Origin: Escherichia coli
GTDB taxonomy: Bacteria > Pseudomonadota > Gammaproteobacteria > Enterobacterales > Enterobacteriaceae
Length of the DNA stretch: 64,000 nt
Reading direction: 5' to 3' (one strand)
NCBI RefSeq assembly: GCF_045037415.1
Contig: NZ_CP173438.1
The notes beneath the pieces were generated by a model, which saw only the letters and a list, made by a program, of their open reading frames with translations, had not been told where the DNA came from and did not search any database. This document shows, one piece after another, positions 45,448 through 56,600 of the stretch (the stretch's first letter is position 1; every line of letters starts with the position of its first letter). The translations under genes and the position numbers were made by a program.

Positions 45448-45679
45448 TAAATATTGCTCCAAAATCAGGTTCATCATCTTTTCGCGTCGTCACCTCCTGT
45501 AAATTGCGAAATTTTATTGGGTTCATGAAATGGCCCCAGGTTGTTTTTGGGTGTCCGTCAGCCCTTTCCATGAAGAAAATTCCAGCCCGGCGAAGAGCCT
45601 CACATTGCTTTGATTTAAGTGGGCTTCCCGTCAGCTCGACCATTTCTTCTCTGGTGATTATGTCGTGATCGCTTTTCAT
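45416..45679 (-). CDS. xis: Excisionase-like DNA-binding protein (DUF4224-like)
   Basis: ITREEMVELTG...ALRRAGIFF...GHPK motif pattern; overlaps the integrase 5' end as is typical for xis-int. Confidence 0.55.
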   Translation of the reverse strand: MKSDHDIITREEMVELTGSPLKSKQCEALRRAGIFFMERADGHPKTTWGHFMNPIKFRNLQEVTTRKDDEPDFGAIFNGRKEKEPSR

Positions 45680-45869
45680 GGTCTTTCCTCATTATGTAGC
45701 TTATTGCGTCATCTGCCTTCTGGCAGGCACGGGCAATATCAGACTCGGTCAAAGTCTGTTTCCTGACGCTGGCCGACAGTCGACCAATTTTGATATCAAA
45801 TGCGGAGAGCAGAGTTGCTCCCGGTTGCCATCGCAGCATTGTGATCCTCCGGTGTCTGGTGAATCGCAA
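45615..45869 (-). CDS. Hypothetical small prophage protein (uncertain; overlaps the xis-like ORF in another frame)
   Basis: 84-aa ORF only; no recognisable domain. Confidence 0.25.
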   Translation of the reverse strand: MRFTRHRRITMLRWQPGATLLSAFDIKIGRLSASVRKQTLTESDIARACQKADDAISYIMRKDHEKRSRHNHQRRNGRADGKPT

Positions 45870-46640: not shown

Positions 46641-48853
46641 GCTGTTTGCTCCTGTGCAGCGGTAAGGGCGGCGAGGCGTTCAGTTTTAATGTCGGTGATA
46701 CGGCGCAGACGTGATCCCAGATACGATGAATATTCTTTATCGCCTTTGGTTTCCGCTGCTTTCCTGTGTACATCCACTTCGCGGGCGATGAGGCCAAATA
46801 CCTTGTTTACTTCGTTGGCGGTTACCGCGGCGGCCAGCGTATTGGCAACGTTGATAAGCTTCTCATCCAGTTCCTTACGCAGACGGGTAGCATCTTCCGC
46901 ATTCTCGCTGGCATTCTTGATATCAAACTCAGCTTTATTCCTCTGGCGGTATTCCGGATTGTCGTACAGGCCCATGAAAATATCGGCGCTGAATCCGAGA
47001 GGGGATAGCGCTTTCTTAACAGCATCCGTCCAGGATTTCTTCGGTGCTTCGCCGTCGCTTGTTGGTCCGTATTTAGTGTCGTAGATATAAGGTGTGCATC
47101 CGTAAGCCTCGGACTCACCGCGTACCCCATTCAATATGTACCAGACTCTCACTTTCATGGTGTGGTGCATTTCACATAGGTACCCGCCAACACCGTCTTG
47201 AATCAGATCCCATTCTATTTTTTCACCAACCTGTTTTTTGCGAACTATTGGTGCGCCTTTATCAAAGCGCTCCTCCAGCACCTCTACCCCCCAGCCAATA
47301 CCAAATGGCCCAAATTCGCGAGTCGCTTTCATCGCTATATAAGTGCCGTTGATGGATGTGCCGCCGCCATTCTGAGAGAAAGCACTGGTGAAGCGCTCAT
47401 CGGTTTTGAATACGTTCTTCCACAATGCCAGGTTATCCGTGTCATCTGAGTCCTTTAACTCCGTTTCGATAGCTGAGATTGCATTCTGCCGCTTGTGCTC
47501 TTCGGCATGGATCCGCTCAACCAGCGCGTCAACGTTCTGCACCAGATCCTTTACCTGCTCGCTAAGTTGTTCTTGTGGAGGAGTCTCTTCTGCCAGGGTA
47601 ATAGCTGCAGGTTCCCTCTGTGATACGGCGTTATTTTCAGGTACGTCATACACATGGCGAGGCGTGACAAACTGCTCACGCAACTGCTGCAAACTACGTT
47701 CTCCAGCATTTGCAGCTTCGCTTTTTTCGCCCTGATTTGAGGGTGTTTCTGACATCATCCCATCAATTGAGAATCGTCCGCCGCCGTGGTTGGTGACTTT
47801 TACATCATCCTTGGGTGCTGCTTCCTTTGGCTTCTCTTCAACAGCATTTGCATCACGCTGCCCGTTAGCTTGCAGCCAGTTGTCGATGTGACTGCGCAGG
47901 GATTGTGGGAAGTGGTACGTGTCTTTTGCGGGGGCGCTCTGAATAACACCGAATACTGATGCGCGGTCATAGGCAAGGATCTGATCCGTTGTGCGCAAGG
48001 CCATTGACCAGCGTTTAAAATCTTCCCTGTCCTGACTGATTATTTCGTCTGCCGCTTTCAGGATGCTGGGGGTGATTTTTTCCGGGGCAACAGGTAACAG
48101 GGCGCAGGCAATTTCACGATCCAGAGTGGCGTGAGTCTGTTTGTAAGGACGTGCGGATGCTGTTTCTGGTTTTACCTCCGGCAGCATTTCATCTCGTTTA
48201 CCGGGATTCTCTACCCATTTTTTTATAAATTTGGAGATAGTCCAACTGGTCGGGTTTTGTTCCTGGGTATCGCAACTTGCCAAAATTGCATGTACCAGAT
48301 TATTCAATCCAGCAATATGCATGTACTCGATGGGCTTACACGCCACCATGGCATCAAGAACGATGCGGTTAAACGCGTCAACCTCATCCTCACTGTCAGT
48401 ATCACTGTTATCGAGCATCTCCAGGTATTCACGCGTCTGCACAAGCAATTCACTGTCGACTTCGTTGGCGTCGTGGCTGAACAGCAGAACGGCGGCGAAT
48501 CGTTCACGAGCCGGCAGTTTCATCAGGTCGCTAACCTGTGAGATATCTGCTGAACTGCAATCTGAATCAACAGGAGTGTTAACTACCCATTTTTCGCCAT
48601 CAAAACTGTGTTCTGTGGCAAACGTCTCATCAAACTCACCGACGCCTGGGCGCGGTTGGCCCGGGGCATCTTCCCAGATTTTAGGTTTGAAATAGTTGTC
48701 GCCGTGGTCAGGGTAGGCTTCCCACAATTTGCCGATGATGATGTTCTCGGCAACTTTTTTGTTAGGGGCGGCGATGGCGATGGCCAGCGCCGGGATCGCG
48801 CCGTTTTTGAGCGCGCCTTTTTTCGCTTCTAACAAGCCGTTAAAAATGGTCAT
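46637..48853 (-). CDS. Large recombination protein: unassigned N-terminal region plus C-terminal Rad52/Sak-like single-strand annealing domain
   Basis: C-terminal FGPFGIGWGVEV ... TDAVKKALSPLGFSADIF pattern typical of Rad52-family SSAPs; acidic low-complexity linker mid-protein; 738 aa. Confidence 0.7.
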   Translation of the reverse strand: MTIFNGLLEAKKGALKNGAIPALAIAIAAPNKKVAENIIIGKLWEAYPDHGDNYFKPKIWEDAPGQPRPGVGEFDETFATEHSFDGEKWVVNTPVDSDCSSADISQVSDLMKLPARERFAAVLLFSHDANEVDSELLVQTREYLEMLDNSDTDSEDEVDAFNRIVLDAMVACKPIEYMHIAGLNNLVHAILASCDTQEQNPTSWTISKFIKKWVENPGKRDEMLPEVKPETASARPYKQTHATLDREIACALLPVAPEKITPSILKAADEIISQDREDFKRWSMALRTTDQILAYDRASVFGVIQSAPAKDTYHFPQSLRSHIDNWLQANGQRDANAVEEKPKEAAPKDDVKVTNHGGGRFSIDGMMSETPSNQGEKSEAANAGERSLQQLREQFVTPRHVYDVPENNAVSQREPAAITLAEETPPQEQLSEQVKDLVQNVDALVERIHAEEHKRQNAISAIETELKDSDDTDNLALWKNVFKTDERFTSAFSQNGGGTSINGTYIAMKATREFGPFGIGWGVEVLEERFDKGAPIVRKKQVGEKIEWDLIQDGVGGYLCEMHHTMKVRVWYILNGVRGESEAYGCTPYIYDTKYGPTSDGEAPKKSWTDAVKKALSPLGFSADIFMGLYDNPEYRQRNKAEFDIKNASENAEDATRLRKELDEKLINVANTLAAAVTANEVNKVFGLIAREVDVHRKAAETKGDKEYSSYLGSRLRRITDIKTERLAALTAAQEQTA

Positions 48854-48883
48854 TGGTCTTTCCTCATTACAGGTCAGTGGTTT

Positions 48884-49204
48884 TTAGTAGGGGAGCTCAT
48901 CGGTATCTGGCGTGTATTCGATGCAAAGTAACTGCTGGATTTTGTCATCGATAGCAGCAATACGCTGTTGGGCGTCGGCGACTGTTTTCTGTTTTTGTTC
49001 ACGCAGTTGCTCGACCTGTAAACCGATGATGTCGATTGGCTCGGGCTGGTTAACGGTAATTTCAATTTCGCGGCTTTCCAGAAGGATGTACCTGTCTGGA
49101 AAATTTTTTGACATATCAACAGTCGCAACAAGCAGCTTTTCGTGGCTGAAAGTTGAAGTTGCATAATGAATAAAGAGTGTTACTGGGATGGTGCGCGCTT
49201 CCAT
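48884..49204 (-). CDS. Hypothetical prophage protein
   Basis: 106-aa ORF with perfect RBS CCAAGGAG before the ATG. Confidence 0.55.
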   Translation of the reverse strand: MEARTIPVTLFIHYATSTFSHEKLLVATVDMSKNFPDRYILLESREIEITVNQPEPIDIIGLQVEQLREQKQKTVADAQQRIAAIDDKIQQLLCIEYTPDTDELPY

Positions 49205-49209
49205 AGCGA

Positions 49210-50214
49210 CTCCTTGGTAATGTATACTCAGAGCCGATCAGCGAATATTGATCAGCTTCCATAGCGTCAGTGTCGTTGGTCTTTCCTCATCACAAGTTTG
49301 GTCACTTGTGATAAATCCGAATGGTTTGGTCGCCGTTCGGGGTAACTGGCCCGCCTTGTGCGGGTCTTTTGCTATCTAAAGGGTGCCGGTTACGTTTCCG
49401 GCGTCGTTATGTTTCCATTACGACCGTACAGGGCTGGTCAGGCCCGGGCTGGTCTTTCCTGTTTTGAGCTGGTCAGGCTCATGGTCAACGCTGGTCAGGC
49501 GTGGTACTTCCTCCGGTCTTTCCCTGGTGTCACGCTGCGGGTTTGGCCTCTCCTGTTGGGGACTCAGGCACAGCGATAAAACCTGGCTGTGTGAAAAAAT
49601 GGCCCATCGTGCGGACTGGGCAAAGACTAAACACAGCAAATTGATGATGGGCGCCCGGAATCGAACCGGGTAACGGGCAGGGAGTTCCCGTTAAACACCT
49701 GTTCACCACAACCGGGAGCGCACTCCGCCATTTCAAAATTTAACGACAAAGCTCAAAGTTGAGTCGATGAAGTGCGCTCTCGTGTTGTAGCCAGGACTCT
49801 TCCCTGGTGGTCACACCGTATCGCCTTGATGGTGAATCAATCGCTCATACCTGGCTGTGGCTTGCACATTCCGGCTACCTGCTATGGAGACAACGCGTTA
49901 AGGCTCCGCTTCCATCCAGACCGCTTCGACACATGTGCCATATGCCGGTGAAGTCTTTCCCTCTGTCACCGTGTTGGCGCCGACGCGCAAAATTTGGTGC
50001 CGTCTTTCCGGCTGTCAGAACGTGTTTCTGAACAACTGCCGCTGGGTAAGCGTTGTTGATGAAAGTGACTTTACAATTTGTATTTGTAATGGTCAATGTG
50101 TTTTTAAAAAATAATTTGTAGTTAGGGGCAAAAAAATATTCACTGTGTAAAGGTGTTTTTGTGTTAGGGGAAAGTTGCATGCCAGCAGCGGCTGGCCTGG
50201 AAATTTGAACTGAA
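49210..50214. repeat. About 1-kb prophage noncoding region rich in short direct/inverted repeats (GCTGGTCAGGC and GGTCTTTCC families)
   Basis: No convincing ORF on either strand; GCTGGTCAGGC at 49433, 49468, 49491; TCTTTCCCTGGTG-like units near 49516, 49797, 49953. Confidence 0.6.
50071..50125. promoter_or_regulatory. Operator-like repeats downstream of the repressor gene (OL-like)
   Basis: TTACAATTTGTATTTGTAAT and ATAATTTGTAGTTA, related to the repeats in the cI/cro intergenic region. Confidence 0.4.
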
Positions 50215-50629
50215 CTATTTTGTCTGGTTTTTGGCTTCAAGTAGTTCTTTTAGCAGTAGATCGAAGTGCTCTCTTTTTTCTTTTAGCTCATTGATTAATT
50301 TATTTTTTTCGCTCTCAGGCAGTCCTCTGAATAGTTGCAGTAGAGCCTGTTCTTGCGGGGTTAGTTCTTGATTGTAATTACCCGGGTGTAGTGTGGATTC
50401 ATCCAAATATTCCCCTTCATTCATGAAGAAAAAATGAACAGGGTATCCGGTCACTTTTGCTAGCTTGTCTAATTTATCTTTTCTTGGAGTTACCCCATTA
50501 CACCATGCCTGAACTGATTGAGCCGTAACCCCAATATGGCGAGCTAACTCAGATTGAGAACCAGCCTAAGTCTTTTAGAATCCGTTGTAGTCGGCTAGCA
50601 AAAGCCATGTTTTTCGTTTTTGTGTTCAT
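50215..50629 (-). pseudogene. cI-like XRE-family HTH repressor, disrupted by a +1 frameshift
   Basis: N-terminal stub MNTKTKNMAFASRLQRILKDLGW then stop; the HTH continues SQSELARHIGVTAQSVQAWCNGVTPRKDKL... in the next frame; deleting one T in TGGTTCTC near 50558-50562 restores a single ORF. Confidence 0.7.
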
Positions 50630-50727
50630 ACCGTAAGGATACAAGGTTTAATTGTAGGGAGCATTGCAAATATAATTTGTAATTACAGTTATTGTTTGTA
50701 ATGATGACGCGGACACAAGGAGTCCAT
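50630..50727. promoter_or_regulatory. Divergent immunity promoter/operator region (OR-like) between cI-like and cro-like genes
   Basis: Perfect 10-bp palindrome TGTAATTACA at 50678-50687 plus TTGCAA and TTTGTAAT repeats; TATAAT-like -10 element. Confidence 0.55.
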
Positions 50728-50958
50728 ATGGATAAACAACTGCAAGACAAAATTCTTTCCGTAATGAGTCAATCCGAGTTAGGGCGGCGATTAGGGAAAA
50801 AACCACAAACGGTAAGCCTCTGGTTCAAAGGACGGGTTCCCGGTGAAGAGGTTTTGCGCACATCTGAAGCTCTTGAATGGCGCGTGACCCCTCATGATCT
50901 TAGACCGGATCTTTACCCAAACCCAGATGACAGCTTGCCTAAAACGGAAGCAGCTTAA
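50728..50958 (+). CDS. Cro-like HTH regulator (YdaS-like)
   Basis: MDKQLQDKILSVMSQSELGRRLGKKPQTVSLWFKGRVP HTH; AAGGAG RBS; divergent from the repressor. Confidence 0.7.
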   Translation: MDKQLQDKILSVMSQSELGRRLGKKPQTVSLWFKGRVPGEEVLRTSEALEWRVTPHDLRPDLYPNPDDSLPKTEAA

Positions 50959-51016
50959 CTGTTGGTGAGCCCCAAATCTGATTAAGCGTAATCAATTTTT
51001 AGCGACAGGAGACGCT

Positions 51017-51493
51017 ATGGAAAACCAAGAGGAATTACAAAAAGAGATTTTGACCTGGGCGGCAAGGGCAGGGCAGGAACTCGTCACGATTGAAATCTGC
51101 CGGGCCTGGTTCAGTCAGGGACGCAATGATGAGTTGAGACTACATGAATTTGAGGACGCGGACGGCAACGTGGACTGGAGAGCCATCAACAACAATCGGC
51201 AGAAAATCTTTCGCTGGTTACGTGGCGAGACAACGGCGGCGCGCCGAAAAACTCAGGTGCTGGCCAGTGTGATGAAAGCCGTGCTACCCGCAGAACGGCG
51301 GGCACGTCTGGAGTCGCCGGGCGATCCCGTTTTGCTGGCAACGCTGGCGGCAAAAGAAGGGGTGGAAGCGATTAACGCTGTACATCTCCACTTCGCGCCA
51401 GAGTTAACTATTCAGGAAATTGACGAAGCAATAGCGGCGCTGGTAGCGACGCGAGGAGCAGTGATACGCACTGCGCAAGACCACCATGCATGA
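51017..51493 (+). CDS. Hypothetical early regulatory protein (CII/YdaT-like position)
   Basis: 158-aa ORF with AGGAG RBS following cro-like gene. Confidence 0.5.
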   Translation: MENQEELQKEILTWAARAGQELVTIEICRAWFSQGRNDELRLHEFEDADGNVDWRAINNNRQKIFRWLRGETTAARRKTQVLASVMKAVLPAERRARLESPGDPVLLATLAAKEGVEAINAVHLHFAPELTIQEIDEAIAALVATRGAVIRTAQDHHA

Positions 51494-51532
51494 GCGCCTG
51501 ACCAGCGTTTAACTTATACCGAGGAAAGACCG

Positions 51533-51757
51533 ATGTTAAGACATATTGACCGCATTACCTGGCGTAACGGCTGGCACCTGAATGGACGCCCGGCACATGT
51601 TGCAGAGATCCGCCCCATATTCGATGGCCGCGTCGCAGCTGCACGTTCTGTATGGGAAAAGTACGAAGAAGAAAAAGCGAAACTGCGTGAGCAAAATCTC
51701 TCTGGCGCTGCCTATGAGGCTGGCTGTCGCGTTCTCTCAGAGGCTTTGGGCATATGA
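51533..51757 (+). CDS. Hypothetical small prophage protein
   Basis: 74-aa ORF preceded by the conserved CGCCTGACCAGCG...GAGGAAAGACC motif. Confidence 0.5.
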   Translation: MLRHIDRITWRNGWHLNGRPAHVAEIRPIFDGRVAAARSVWEKYEEEKAKLREQNLSGAAYEAGCRVLSEALGI

Positions 51758-52509
51758 ACATCCTCCCGTTACTTGATAGACCCATAGCCTTCCAGAGAAG
51801 TTTTATCCGTCTTGAAATGGGCGTGACTGCCGCATTGTTTCTGTCGCAGTTGACGTACTGGACAAACAGAACAACTGACGACGGCTGGGTATATAAAACC
51901 CAGGATGAGTGGGAAGAGGAAACAGGGCTTTCACGATACGAGCAGGAGGGCGCGCGCAAAAAACTACGTGGTCTCGGCGTCTTGCTGGAACGTAAACAGG
52001 GCTTGCCTGCCAGGCTGTACTACAAAATCGATAATGATGTGTTGTGCCAGCTACTTACGTCCGCATACAAGGATGCGGAAAAACCACATACAGGTGAGGG
52101 GAAAACCACCAGGCCTGTACGTGGAAAACCAACAAACATTCTTACAGAGAATACTACAGAGATTATTACTGATGGTGAATCGGCTGACGCCGACACCCAA
52201 CAACCTGCCGACCAGAGAATAAATTATCAGGTGATACTCGATACCTATCACGAGATTTTGCCAGAGATGCCACCAGTGAAAATCCTCACTGACGGCAGAA
52301 AAAAACACCTTCGCACTTTCTGGAAAAAATTCAATTTCAATGAGTCCCGTTGGCGGGCCTATCTGGAATTTATCGGTGGCAATTGTCGCTGGATGCTGGA
52401 GGACAGGCCAAATGGCAGGGGAGGATTCTGGCGGCGTAAAAATCTTGATTATCTGATTACCGAACGCTGCTATGTTTCGGTCAAGGAAGAACGCGCAAAT
52501 GATAAATAA
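51754..52509 (+). CDS. Phage replication initiation protein (O-like / replisome organiser)
   Basis: N-terminal winged-helix-like region and conserved phage C-terminus (...GGFWRRKNLDYLI); immediately precedes the helicase. Confidence 0.65.
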   Translation: MNILPLLDRPIAFQRSFIRLEMGVTAALFLSQLTYWTNRTTDDGWVYKTQDEWEEETGLSRYEQEGARKKLRGLGVLLERKQGLPARLYYKIDNDVLCQLLTSAYKDAEKPHTGEGKTTRPVRGKPTNILTENTTEIITDGESADADTQQPADQRINYQVILDTYHEILPEMPPVKILTDGRKKHLRTFWKKFNFNESRWRAYLEFIGGNCRWMLEDRPNGRGGFWRRKNLDYLITERCYVSVKEERANDK

Positions 52510-53914
52510 CGCGATTGCACTGTACAGCGTTGACGCAGAACAGGCTGTTCTGGGCTGTCTGATGCTGAATACCGACCACGACAGAACCAATGCGGTATTT
52601 GCGTTACTGAAACCGGAAACGTTTTATATCAATGCGCATCAGGTTATCTACCGGGAGATCAAAGGATTATTTCAAGCTGATAAACCAACTGACCTGATAA
52701 CACTGACCGAACTGATGGAATCGAAGGGGCTGTATGAGCGCGTGGGGGGATTCGCATACCTGGCTGAAATGAGTAAGGCGGCGATTCCGGCCTCAATGGT
52801 CAACTACGCGAAAATTGTACGTGAAAAAGCCATTCTTCGTTATGCCGTGGAAAAGTTGAATTCTTGTCTGGAGATTATGATCCAGCCTGCAGATATGACT
52901 GCTACTGACAGGATCACCGCCGTTCAGCAAGTGATTGGGCAGGTGGCCGAACATTCCCGTACCGGGCATAAGGGCGGTTTGCGTCCGGCAAGTGAAGTCG
53001 TCGATGACTGGATAGATGACCTTGAGCGCCGTTTCAATGATCCAGCACATGCAGCCGGACTAACGCTCGGAATCGAAAGCCTTGATCGCTTAATGGCACC
53101 AAAGCAGGCGTTAAGAGGTTCATTGGTCGTTATTGGTGCCCGGCCAAAAATGGGCAAGACAGCCGCGTTTAATAAAATTGCGGTGCATTTTGCTCTGAAT
53201 CATCGTTTGCCGACGCTGGTATTTAGCCTGGAAATGACTGACAGAAGTCTCATTGAACGCATGGTTGCGCAGGAAGCAAAGGTCAATTCGGAGATTTTTT
53301 ATCTTGGCCCTAACGATGAATCTGAATTGAGTCTCGCAATAGCAAAGGCGGGGGAGATTGCCGAATCCAACATGATGATTGACAGCACGGCAGGTGTAAC
53401 CCTTGCGCATATTGTCGCTGAATGTCGAAAAGTTAAACGGATGCGTGGCTCGGTTGGCCTGGTGGCAATTGACTATTTGACGCTGATGAAGACCGAATCG
53501 GCAGAGCGTAGGGATATTGCGTATGGCGATATCACAACCGGTTTGAAGAACCTGGCAAAAGAGCTGGATTGTGTTGTGGTCCTGCTGACGCAACTCAACC
53601 GAAAGCTTGAAGAACGTGCCGATAAGCGGCCTAACCCGAGCGACAGTAAAGATACCGGGCAGATCGAACAAGATTGCGATGTCTGGATTGGCCTCTATCG
53701 TGATGCTGTTTATAACGAAAATGCCGACCCAAATCTCATGGAAATGTTGCTACGTCTGAACCGCGAAGGACCATCGGGAACAGCCTATGCCCTGATGAAA
53801 AATGGCTCAGTTATTGATATCAGCGATGAGGAGGTTTATCGCCTTACCAACGACCGCTCAGAAAAAAATAAACGTTATTCCCGTAGCGATAATTCTCGCA
53901 CAAATGAATTTTAA
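52499..53914 (+). CDS. Replicative DNA helicase, DnaB family (phage-encoded)
   Basis: DnaB N-terminal domain (AEQAVLGCLML...), Walker A GARPKMGKTA, RecA-like core. Confidence 0.9.
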   Translation: MINNAIALYSVDAEQAVLGCLMLNTDHDRTNAVFALLKPETFYINAHQVIYREIKGLFQADKPTDLITLTELMESKGLYERVGGFAYLAEMSKAAIPASMVNYAKIVREKAILRYAVEKLNSCLEIMIQPADMTATDRITAVQQVIGQVAEHSRTGHKGGLRPASEVVDDWIDDLERRFNDPAHAAGLTLGIESLDRLMAPKQALRGSLVVIGARPKMGKTAAFNKIAVHFALNHRLPTLVFSLEMTDRSLIERMVAQEAKVNSEIFYLGPNDESELSLAIAKAGEIAESNMMIDSTAGVTLAHIVAECRKVKRMRGSVGLVAIDYLTLMKTESAERRDIAYGDITTGLKNLAKELDCVVVLLTQLNRKLEERADKRPNPSDSKDTGQIEQDCDVWIGLYRDAVYNENADPNLMEMLLRLNREGPSGTAYALMKNGSVIDISDEEVYRLTNDRSEKNKRYSRSDNSRTNEF

Positions 53915-53952
53915 CCACGCCTGACCAGCGTGAAATAACCGAGGAAAGACCA

Positions 53953-54363
53953 ATGACCACCACTCCAGGCAAATTAGAGTACCCGTCGGACAAAGGACAC
54001 ATAGACGACGGTAAAAACTATCTCGACGTCATTTTGTGGAATATGAACGTCGGGCCACGTGCGCGCACTCGCGCGGTTTTTGTGCCAAGACCTAAAGCAG
54101 GCAATTTTTCAACCCCTGCTAAGCCTGCCCGTCAGGCATCCGTAGCCGCAGCGCCAGCAGTGAAACGTAAGGGCAAAACGCACACCGGGATCGCGATTCG
54201 CAGAAATGGTGAGCGGCAAGTGAAACTCCACGAAACAGCGACAACCTGGTGTGCCTCACCGCATGAAACTTACGACAAGATAACCGGGCAGCGCATTGGC
54301 GCGCCTGGTCGCTGCCGCCTGCTGCTGAGTTCCATCACTCCGATAGCAAAGAAAGGGGCGTGA
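53953..54363 (+). CDS. Hypothetical prophage protein
   Basis: 136-aa ORF preceded by the conserved intercistronic motif. Confidence 0.5.
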   Translation: MTTTPGKLEYPSDKGHIDDGKNYLDVILWNMNVGPRARTRAVFVPRPKAGNFSTPAKPARQASVAAAPAVKRKGKTHTGIAIRRNGERQVKLHETATTWCASPHETYDKITGQRIGAPGRCRLLLSSITPIAKKGA

Positions 54364-55539: not shown

Positions 55540-55763
55540 ATTGACTTAGAAAAAGTCCGGGGCTATAGTTTCCGCGCAGCCGCAAAATCGGTTGCCGGGA
55601 TTGGCGTCCCGGATATCTAAGTGACGCATAGCCGCGTTAGCGGTTTTTTTATGTGTTAGGCACGGCCACATTCGCATTATGGTGGGCTGTGTGGGGGCTT
55701 CTGTGGAAGCGCCGGGTTCACTTAGCCGGTTACGCCAACCCTGCACAGCTCACCACCAGATGA

Positions 55764-56600
55764 TTGGCGTCGCTGGTGGTGATGAAAAAAACACTAAGTG
55801 AGGCCACTGCGATGACAGTCCAAATATCTGCGGAATCCCTTTCTCCGCTACATCATAACCAACTTCCCGTCATCACTACTGAATTGCTTGCCAGTTTGTA
55901 TGGCACGGAAGTAAATGGTATCCAGCAAAACTTCAAGCGCAACATCGCCAGATTTGTCGTAGGAAAGCATTTTTTTAAGCTGGAAGGTAATGAATTACGC
56001 GACTTCAAAAACAGACTGACAGATAGTCAGTCAGTTGCTAAACATACCCGATCCCTCATTCTCTGGACAGAACGCGGCGCAGCTCGCCATGCCAAAATGC
56101 TGGAAACAGAACAGGCCTGGGAAGTTTTCGAAAAGCTGGAAGATTGTTATTTTAGCCAGCGTCCAGAGAGGCGGAGTACAACTACCGATGACCGTACTCC
56201 CTTGCGTGATGCCGTTAATATACTGGTCGGCAAGAAAGGCATGATGTATCCCGATGCCTACACCATGATTCATCAACGCTTCGCCGTCTCTCACATAGAA
56301 CAACTGTCACAGACGCAAATGTTAGAGGCGATTGAATACATCCACTGCCTGCTACTCGATGAAAATCACCCAACCATTCCAGATTTTTCTTTTATCACCA
56401 CTATCAAAAATGGAAAAGTGACCGGGATGCGCCATGTTGCCAAAGGCGAACATCTGATGACCTTTGACGCTTTCAAAGAGATCGCTGAGCGGGCAGGGTA
56501 TCTGGTGATCCACAGCGACAATCTGCGAAGTATGACACTGGATAAATTGATGGTAATGGGGAAAAAGTCGGCTATATCCGTTGCTAATTCAGCATTTTGA
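55764..56600 (+). CDS. ORF6N/KilA-N-domain protein (antirepressor-like)
   Basis: N-terminal ...LPVITTELLASLYGTEVNGIQQNFKRNIARFVVGKHFFKLEGNELRDF... pattern; start codon uncertain. Confidence 0.6.
   Translation: MASLVVMKKTLSEATAMTVQISAESLSPLHHNQLPVITTELLASLYGTEVNGIQQNFKRNIARFVVGKHFFKLEGNELRDFKNRLTDSQSVAKHTRSLILWTERGAARHAKMLETEQAWEVFEKLEDCYFSQRPERRSTTTDDRTPLRDAVNILVGKKGMMYPDAYTMIHQRFAVSHIEQLSQTQMLEAIEYIHCLLLDENHPTIPDFSFITTIKNGKVTGMRHVAKGEHLMTFDAFKEIAERAGYLVIHSDNLRSMTLDKLMVMGKKSAISVANSAF

Follow-up and report, generated by a model that had tools for sequence, protein, structure and literature searches.

A putative antisense RNA of the IsrB family and the start-codon leaders complementary to its seed in the early region of an Escherichia coli lambdoid prophage

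IsrB is a small RNA (sRNA) of the Salmonella prophages Gifsy-1 and Gifsy-2, in which transcripts of 88 and 94 nt were found by northern blot and primer extension (PMC2330248). Detected since 2008, it is expressed in lysogens and associated with ProQ and Hfq, and the papers cited here name no targets for it (PMC2330248, PMC7067206, PMC5391140). In Cluster K mycobacteriophages, the start-associated sequence (SAS) and ESAS elements consist of an asymmetric block with a Shine-Dalgarno (SD) core near the starts of many unrelated non-structural genes, with an upstream inverted repeat in about half of them and a single reverse-oriented copy without a gene start; their authors did not decide between an RNA and a protein as the binder of the block, favoured DNA-binding proteins for the inverted repeats and described the ESAS arms as devoid of RNA-stem covariation (PMC3203893). 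In c4 of phages P1 and P7, as in the related P4 CI RNA, exposed segments of a phage RNA pair over a ribosome-binding site and shut lytic functions. Here we describe a 64,000-nucleotide stretch of Escherichia coli DNA (assembly GCF_045037415.1, contig NZ_CP173438.1; hereafter the window), which contains a lambdoid prophage. Its early region carries a leader, made of a 13-mer and an SD block, that is repeated ahead of several genes, and an unannotated candidate antisense sRNA whose exposed 5' part is complementary to the block (Table 1). We consider it probable that this one RNA represses the translation of several early genes in trans by pairing over their SD and AUG, the leader being its target site.

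The 13-mer CGCCTGACCAGCG is found exactly at 51495-51507 and 53918-53930 on the plus strand and at 49489-49501 on the minus strand, the three places given in a preliminary description of this DNA. With up to two mismatches it has nine sites in the window, two further minus-strand copies at 49432 and 49467 among them, against 1.4 expected, and none of 100 shuffles reached nine. The block GAGGAAAGACC, a GAGG SD core followed by seven more conserved bases, is exact at five places (51521 and 53941 on the plus strand; 48855, 49278 and 45680 on the minus strand), with a one-mismatch copy at 49451 on the minus strand. These six sites with at most one mismatch compare with 0.65 expected, and none of 100 shuffles matched them. 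On the plus strand the 13-mer does precede the block and an ATG, as had been described, the spacers to the block being 13 and 10 nt instead of about 14 nt. The ribosome-binding block noted before the minus-strand gene that starts at 48853 was confirmed, this gene being exonuclease-like, and the fifth exact block directly adjoins the ATG of the excisionase gene. Every early module has a block at its leading gene, namely the excisionase gene, the exonuclease gene, the open reading frame (ORF) of 74 amino acids (aa) before the O-like and DnaB genes, and the 136-aa ORF. Block and ATG are 0-1 nt apart in the window; for most relatives the gap is 0-4 nt.

All motif copies are confined to the 8-kb early region, and the ATG-linked blocks are all co-oriented with the divergent transcription from PL and PR. 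The composite motif is carried by at least 120 IMG/VR stretches and by prophages in Escherichia, Citrobacter, Enterobacter and Serratia genomes; it stands upstream of orthologous genes in phages as distant as BUCT708, the Serratia prophages and Pectobacterium phage ZF40, where one base differs in all copies in concert. Its absence there, named in the preliminary description as a refutation, was thus not observed. A megablast search of the phage collection with the region gave no match, and the relatives were reached by the 'distant' and protein search modes. A full-text literature search for the motif sequences returned unrelated primer matches only, and ARAGORN and Rfam found nothing at the leaders; the only below-threshold matches were RprA-like and isrB.

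The block is conserved over more bases than ribosome binding would require. Its GAGG part is the only one able to pair with the 16S rRNA 3' end; therefore the conservation of AAAGACC, as invariant as GAGG even in the Serratia prophages, where the neighbouring protein is just 54% identical, needs another explanation. Together with the orientation of the ATG-linked blocks along PL and PR transcription, this upholds the earlier suggestion of a shared regulatory or translational element. The block could still be an efficient translation-initiation cassette that doubles as a mosaic linker, with a hairpin that shields the 3' end of the message before it. Such a cassette would be passed on at module boundaries and aid homologous recombination among related phages, and its complementarity to the sRNA would have no function in trans. 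Its position next to the ATG at the junctions of functional modules would suit such a cassette, as would the gene families downstream, which vary from phage to phage, and the similar reading of the Cluster K SAS elements. However, a cassette leaves AAAGACC unexplained, and the other genes of the same operons use ordinary, unrelated ribosome-binding sites. In addition, the non-initiating copy at the sRNA locus is equally conserved, and all blocks of a genome switch from A to C together with the seed, as described below. We therefore hold this explanation to be improbable.

In the mRNA, the 13-mer lies at the centre of a small hairpin, whose stem of 4-5 bp covaries and whose 7-nt loop, NNGACCN, is conserved. 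Paired changes flank CCUGACCAG among the IMG/VR stretches (GGCG/CGCC, CACG/CGUG, UGCG/CGCA and AGCG/CGUU). In 99 unique leader hairpins, gathered without any pairing filter, 76% of the cells of a 5-bp stem around the 7-nt loop pair, compared with 61% in shuffles and 16-55% with a slid partner. Double-sided changes were observed in 75 cells against 24 expected, and none of 500 shuffles reached the observed score. In the window alone, the loop CUGACCA is present five times, with four or five different stems among the copies. Its exonuclease leader retains a degenerate loop remnant, CACUGACCUGU, upstream of the block, and the exonuclease gene of relatives has the full hairpin (GGCGC-CUGACCA-GCGCC and similar). 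The arrangement of hairpins and blocks in the PL leader is kept in relatives.

These hairpins also bear on a reading at the DNA level, in which the copies are sites for a DNA-binding protein (a CII/YdaT-like activator or a replication initiator) or form single-stranded DNA hairpins in replication. The 13-mer is partly palindromic, its three copies at 49432-49501 are clustered like iterons, and DNA-binding proteins were the choice of the ESAS authors for their inverted repeats. Covarying stems around a constant loop, on the other hand, point to a folded single strand and not to a duplex site, G.U pairs are tolerated, the orientation strictly follows transcription, and the block is asymmetric and tied to start codons. 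Sites of this kind seem to us very improbable.

The block copy at 49278-49288 is invariant in relatives, yet it mostly has no start codon after it. This minus-strand copy is the template of the sRNA seed on the plus strand and no gene leader. The preliminary description had read this block as preceding a minus-strand gene that starts near 49266; the sequence is there, but the supposed gene start is a spurious ATG at 49262, which arose from a duplication of about 22 nt in the 5' region of the sRNA. Likewise, its view of a leader reused on both strands holds for the motif copies, but not for the minus-strand copies at 49278 and 49432-49501 as gene leaders. The duplication is found in this phage only, and its GACGCTATGGAAGCT resembles the start region of the 106-aa gene.

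The sRNA gene has the first leftward early gene on one side and the PL leader on the other, and its transcription would run against PL. On the plus strand, the order is TATACT, GATC, seed, first stem-loop (SL1), second stem-loop (SL2), an A/U-rich stretch and an intrinsic terminator. The candidate -10 box is TATACT or TATAAT in 29 of 29 dereplicated relatives and also in ZF40, with TGnTATAAT in short variants. The mapped 5' ends of Gifsy-2 IsrB lie 6-12 nt past TGTAGAAT, which offers an analogy for the -10 box of the window sRNA. The conserved GATC just past this box, present in nearly all relatives, lies within a small covarying hairpin (49236-49262 in the window).

Beside the seed, the 9-bp hairpin SL1 has a stem that is wholly different among phages and a constant loop. 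The 24 unique versions contain 10 non-Watson-Crick pairs, every one of them A.C if read on the leftward strand and hence G.U on the plus strand, with none in reverse. The formal covariation test was limited to SL1 and the inner part of SL2, because two terminator types are offset by one column and RNAalifold, given the long alignment, paired the 5' region and the terminator wrongly. In this part, 98.9% of cells are paired (38-56% in slid controls) and 10 of 13 pairs show double-sided changes, a result reached by none of 500 shuffles. Furthermore, 20 of 22 relatives have the more stable fold on the plus strand and not on its complement (p = 1.5e-4), and the plus-strand intrinsic terminator is kept, with the A-run before its stem (the U-run of the plus strand) conserved and the other side variable. 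Exactly one such RNA is found in each of 83 related loci, and four longer loci without it stop short of its expected position. Loci were called by a structural filter; a looser regular expression also picked up ordinary leaders in reverse complement.

Among native type I-E CRISPR spacers of E. coli, two match the non-coding sRNA/PL-leader region, which indicates that E. coli hosts acquired spacers against this conserved RNA locus. The spacer of strain LS45 equals window 49483-49514, over a PL-leader hairpin and with an ATG protospacer-adjacent motif before it. A duplicated spacer of strain 2020CK-00188 spans the sRNA seed and SL1 (window 49273-49305). Positions 1501-1532 of L002 and about 1500-1533 of L003 belong to the same observation.

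The seed region is predicted to form 14-19 bp over the SD and AUG of the four leader genes, which take ranks 1-4 among the 346 ORF starts of the window. Predicted energies are -35.4 kcal/mol for the exonuclease-like gene, -32.0 for the 136-aa ORF, -28.8 for the 74-aa ORF and -26.4 for the excisionase; the fifth-ranked start has -23.8 and the median is -13.3 kcal/mol. In addition, the UUGGUC loops of the sRNA are complementary to GACCA of the leader loops, with which kissing contacts of 5-6 bp (UGGUC with GACCA) are possible.

Seed and blocks vary together. In the 75 loci of A-type, the seed is GGUCUUUCC, with U, and 304 of 304 start-proximal blocks are GGAAAGACC, with A. In the 15 loci of C-type, ZF40 included, the seed is GGUCUUGCC, with G, and 71 of 71 start-proximal blocks are GGCAAGACC, with C. 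The classes associate perfectly (304/0 and 0/71), with no mixed genome among the 90 loci, and the single A/C switch involves 3-9 sites per genome. In ZF40, whose gene order is that of the window prophage, the leader GAGGCAAGACC stands before excisionase, gp05, gp13 (the 74-aa orthologue), gp16 (with a hairpin) and gp18, and that of the exonuclease gene gp07 is GAGGCAAGATC; the same RNA architecture is found at the predicted place, with the seed UUGGUCUUGCCUU. No further specificity classes at block positions 6 and 7 were found in IMG/VR.

A concerted A to C change in all copies would also be expected from co-evolution with a protein. An RNA-binding protein (an N-like antiterminator, a translational repressor, or ProQ, Hfq or CsrA alone) could recognise the GACC loop and the A-type block, with the antisense RNA acting only in cis on the leftward operon or competing for the protein. 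A constant loop on freely varying stems has the look of boxB-type protein sites, and we take the leader loop to resemble the boxB loops of P22 and phi21; the association of IsrB with ProQ and Hfq fits as well. Nevertheless, no N-like arginine-rich antiterminator ORF or other RNA-binding ORF was seen in the early region, and the sites, unlike nut sites, are next to start codons and present in several copies per operon. The hairpin under selection at the cis locus is that of the opposite strand and not the mRNA-strand one (10 to 0), and with a protein as the binder, the perfectly complementary RNA gene in every leader-bearing phage becomes a coincidence. We judge this explanation unlikely. The protein, cassette and DNA explanations are each weakened by the selection on the opposite strand at the cis locus, by the conservation of a copy that heads no gene, by the joint switch of all sites in a genome and by an orientation that strictly follows transcription.

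The window RNA is best described, from its sequence, as a divergent IsrB-family member with a 5' anti-SD seed, SL1 and a matching leader set, given its matches in both directions and its own 5' features. Window 49286-49370 (plus strand) matches the Rfam isrB model (RF01386) with 15.2 bits (E = 1.5), and the canonical Gifsy-2 IsrB scores 99.3 bits. The C-type homologue L148, with the same architecture as the window RNA, reaches 39.3 bits against a threshold of 35, at the exact sRNA coordinates. In the other direction, the covariance model of the A-type RNAs (R1) gives 99 bits to the window sRNA and one strong match per phage, and matches Gifsy-2 IsrB (L169 5953-6081, plus strand) with 27.7 bits and E of about 5e-4, a weak match with rough calibration. 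The genomic context of IsrB in the Gifsy prophages ('<- -> <-' in a lambdoid prophage) is listed in Table 1 of that report (PMC2330248). The same order is found here, where the window RNA lies between the 106-aa and 738-aa leftward genes and the PL leader. The gene of Gifsy-2 IsrB is flanked by the exonuclease VIII gene STM1009 and by STM1010 and lies on the strand opposite to them, and the window RNA shares this position and orientation, on the opposite strand between an exonuclease (sbcA-like) and the next leftward early gene. In both, the 3' half consists of a long hairpin, whose loop is GCUUUGGUCGGU, and an intrinsic terminator after it. However, Gifsy IsrB has another 5' part, without the A-type seed and without an SL1 with UUGGUC loop, and Gifsy-2 lacks the shared leader set.

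Several points weigh against an IsrB-type RNA that represses the leader genes in trans. The window RNA scores below the isrB gathering score (15.2 against 35 bits), and as Gifsy-2 IsrB has neither the seed nor matching leaders, its function is not transferable. The seed is invariant within each clade, so that the co-variation rests on a single evolutionary event, and its pattern is also what a co-evolving RNA-binding protein or gene conversion among the copies would produce. In the Serratia/Enterobacter loci, the 9-nt core does not vary; a flank change in L130 is matched in two of four targets, but the cis copy of L129 reads CUAGG against CGAGG in its targets, a mismatch at the duplex edge, and this flank co-variation is suggestive only. 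The bias of G.U over A.C that assigns the leader hairpins to the mRNA strand is modest. By inspection only, the GATC hairpin 5' of the seed seems to suit the leftward strand better. The putative sRNA promoter has a good -10 box but shows no recognisable -35 box, and a consensus promoter scan called no promoter there. Finally, the sRNA is unannotated in the collections searched, the transcriptome literature for ST131 and ZF40 shows nothing at this locus, and its transcription in E. coli is something that we infer from the sequence.

With these points weighed, we still favour translational repression by the antisense RNA. The prophage would make a structured plus-strand RNA of about 100-140 nt, whose seed would pair over the SD and AUG of the first cistron in each early module, that is, those of excision, recombination, replication and the following block. 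The UUGGUC loops would kiss the CUGACCA loops of the leaders and thereby aid seed pairing, with Hfq or ProQ perhaps taking part. Pairing would block ribosome entry and silence the modules together. Since the leader is complementary to the exposed 5' part of the sRNA, the genes for excision, recombination and replication are probably all silenced by this one phage RNA. In the lysogen, it could counter leaky early transcription and possibly also incoming phages that share its seed type. The PL-leader copies may be extra binding sites, or decoys that titrate the sRNA after induction.

Among described systems, c4 is the closest in its way of working, though the likeness is not one of membership: in both, target sites lie over the ribosome-binding site and specificity changes are matched. 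According to Citron and Schuster (1990), the P1 and P7 specificity types of c4 reportedly differ by matched changes in RNA and target, to which the A-type and C-type classes would be a parallel. In contrast to c4, which is processed from the transcript of its own targets and controls one operon (icd-ant), the window RNA has a gene of its own on the opposite strand and is matched to at least four start sites in two divergent operons. The Rfam C4 model (RF01695) gave no match at 49.2-49.4 kb, nor is there sequence or model similarity to c4. The C4 match of the window belongs to another locus (55675): an isrK/C4-antisense/a1b1-target module at 55563-55760 (plus strand), with C4 and isrK matches, stands ahead of an ORF6N/antirepressor-like gene (55764-56600) in the same prophage. 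This module is a second RNA-based control region, of Gifsy/P1 type.

The closest architectural parallel is SAS/ESAS, with a start-linked SD block, an upstream repeat and one reverse-oriented copy. Sequence (GGGATAGGAGCCC, 3-7 bp before starts) and host are unrelated, the window elements are therefore no members of that family, and a complementary RNA has not been described for SAS/ESAS. P22 sar, lambda OOP, CopA and Inc RNA are likewise short, highly structured, cis-encoded antisense RNAs with loop-initiated pairing, but they act on the single transcript that they overlap, whereas here other genes, too, carry sequence copies of the cis target. The UUGGUC loops presumably fit the YUNR U-turn motif, as does UUGGCG of Inc RNAs. 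A lambda-type nut site (boxA/boxB) was rejected, as the hairpins are too many per operon and adjacent to start codons, and boxA-like bases are unconserved between the two plus-strand copies. HK022 put RNA was rejected as well, with no sequence similarity to the HK022 immunity region; the putRNA paper serves as an analogy only, for a different PL-leader element.

Table 1. Positions of the leader copies, the candidate sRNA and the early genes in the window
Feature	Position	Strand	Remarks
SD block GAGGAAAGACC + G + ATG of 74-aa ORF (PHROG 2465)	51521-51535	+	ORF overlaps O-like gene start; DnaB after O-like
SD block GAGGAAAGACC + A + ATG of 136-aa ORF (PHROG 5148)	53941-53955	+	Heads run of overlapping small genes, a theta-subunit-like one included
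SD block (48855-48865) + A + ATG (48853) of 738-aa exonuclease-like gene	48851-48881	-	Loop remnant upstream
SD block (45680-45690) + ATG (45679) of excisionase (DUF4224, PHROG 1266)	45677-45690	-	No upstream hairpin in this phage
Leader hairpin 1	51493-51509	+	Stem AGCGC/GCGUU (one G.U), 7-nt loop CUGACCA; just past CII/YdaT-like stop codon
Leader hairpin 2	53916-53932	+	Stem CACGC/GCGUG, loop CUGACCA; just past DnaB stop codon
PL-leader non-coding copies	49432-49524	-	Three hairpins and two blocks, upstream of sRNA gene
PL-leader hairpins with CUGACCA loop	49432-49444; 49467-49479; 49489-49501	-	Stems GGGC/GCCC; GAGC/GCUC; ACGC/GCGU
PL-leader blocks	49451-49461; 49515-49524	-	CAGGAAAGACC; GGGAAAGACC
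Candidate antisense sRNA, divergent IsrB-family	49235-49371	+	Unannotated, about 100-140 nt, putative 5' end
Candidate -10 box TATACT	49223-49228	+	Kept in relatives
sRNA seed GGUCUUUCCUC	49278-49288	+	Single-stranded 5' part; complement of minus-strand block
SL1	49289-49312	+	Loop UUGGUC 49298-49303
SL2	49316-49341	+	Loop UUGGUC 49326-49331
Intrinsic terminator	49348-49366, then UUUU	+	Terminator scan
PL	~50096-50068	-	CI-like repressor gene next
Leftward early genes		-	Integrase, excisionase (start 45679), small ORF, Mu Gam-like, 738-aa exonuclease-like (start 48853), 106-aa gene (start 49204)
Rightward early genes		+	Cro-like, CII/YdaT-like, 74-aa ORF (start 51533), O-like, DnaB, 136-aa ORF (start 53953), small overlapping genes

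The first 44.3 kb of the window are E. coli chromosome (DsrA, RseX, uvrC-pgsA, then tRNA-Gly, -Cys and -Leu), after which the lambdoid prophage is inserted. ST131-type strains, such as EC958 and SK1144, are identical or near-identical to the window, and the locus is present in about 450 of 5426 complete E. coli genomes, mostly of ST131 type. Beyond the 106-aa gene, about 850 nt ahead of PL contain no convincing ORF. Relative to SK1144, the CI-like repressor gene (50215-50607, minus strand) has a 1-bp insertion at about 50559 (GAGAACC against GAGACC), which frameshifts its N-terminal helix-turn-helix part; the gene is either a pseudogene in this strain or carries a sequencing error. A substitution at 50123 falls in the operator/promoter region.

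Further elements lie nearby. At window 49776-49947, a non-coding block of about 170 nt is conserved and apparently structured, without an Rfam match. It shows invariant segments, compensatory stems and a pairing of GCACAU with AUGUGC over a long range. Many phages that are otherwise unrelated have copies of it, 70-76% identical, in gaps without annotation: just downstream of PL in mEp390; in BUCT708 and the Klebsiella phages SopranoGao and ST512-KPC3phi13.3; and between terminase and portal in the epsilon15-like SPN1S, PAT1, Tyrion and phiV10. In the window and in Tyrion, it stands directly 5' of a leftward operon. From this position, the block could be a leader RNA, possibly put-like. On the minus strand, 49592-49702 shows a sub-threshold RprA-like match (37.4 bits against a gathering score of 70), whose 3' half (UUGCUGUGUUUAGUCUUUGCCC and terminator) is close to the RprA 3' domain and kept in relatives; the element is an intrinsic terminator inside the PL leader, with a tRNA T-arm-like fragment, GGTTCGATTCCGGGCGC, before it. 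Nearer to PL, units of (C/G)UGACAG-stem-GAAAGA-stem are found at 49998-50022 and about 49950-49975 (minus strand). They are also present in mEp390, which has no such sRNA system, and still read GAAAGA in the C-type ZF40; they are therefore a separate leader element and not sRNA targets.

A 2025 review of phage sRNAs mentions neither IsrB nor a regulon of this kind (PMC12197685). If true, the proposed pairing would give the IsrB family a function and a target set, and a multi-target anti-SD RNA regulon would join the few RNA-based phage immunity systems (P1/P7 c4, P4 CI and P22 sar). It would also supply a testable mechanism for start-associated sequence cassettes, and the two natural seed/leader classes would be ready-made orthogonal parts for compensatory mutations. 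More tentatively, an IsrB-type RNA may form a second RNA-based immunity layer in temperate phages of Escherichia, Citrobacter, Enterobacter, Serratia and Pectobacterium, with an anti-SD seed that acts on the excision, recombination and replication modules by way of a portable leader cassette, at least two orthogonal classes (U/A and G/C) and PL-leader decoys that release the block on induction, a logic that could extend to SAS/ESAS.

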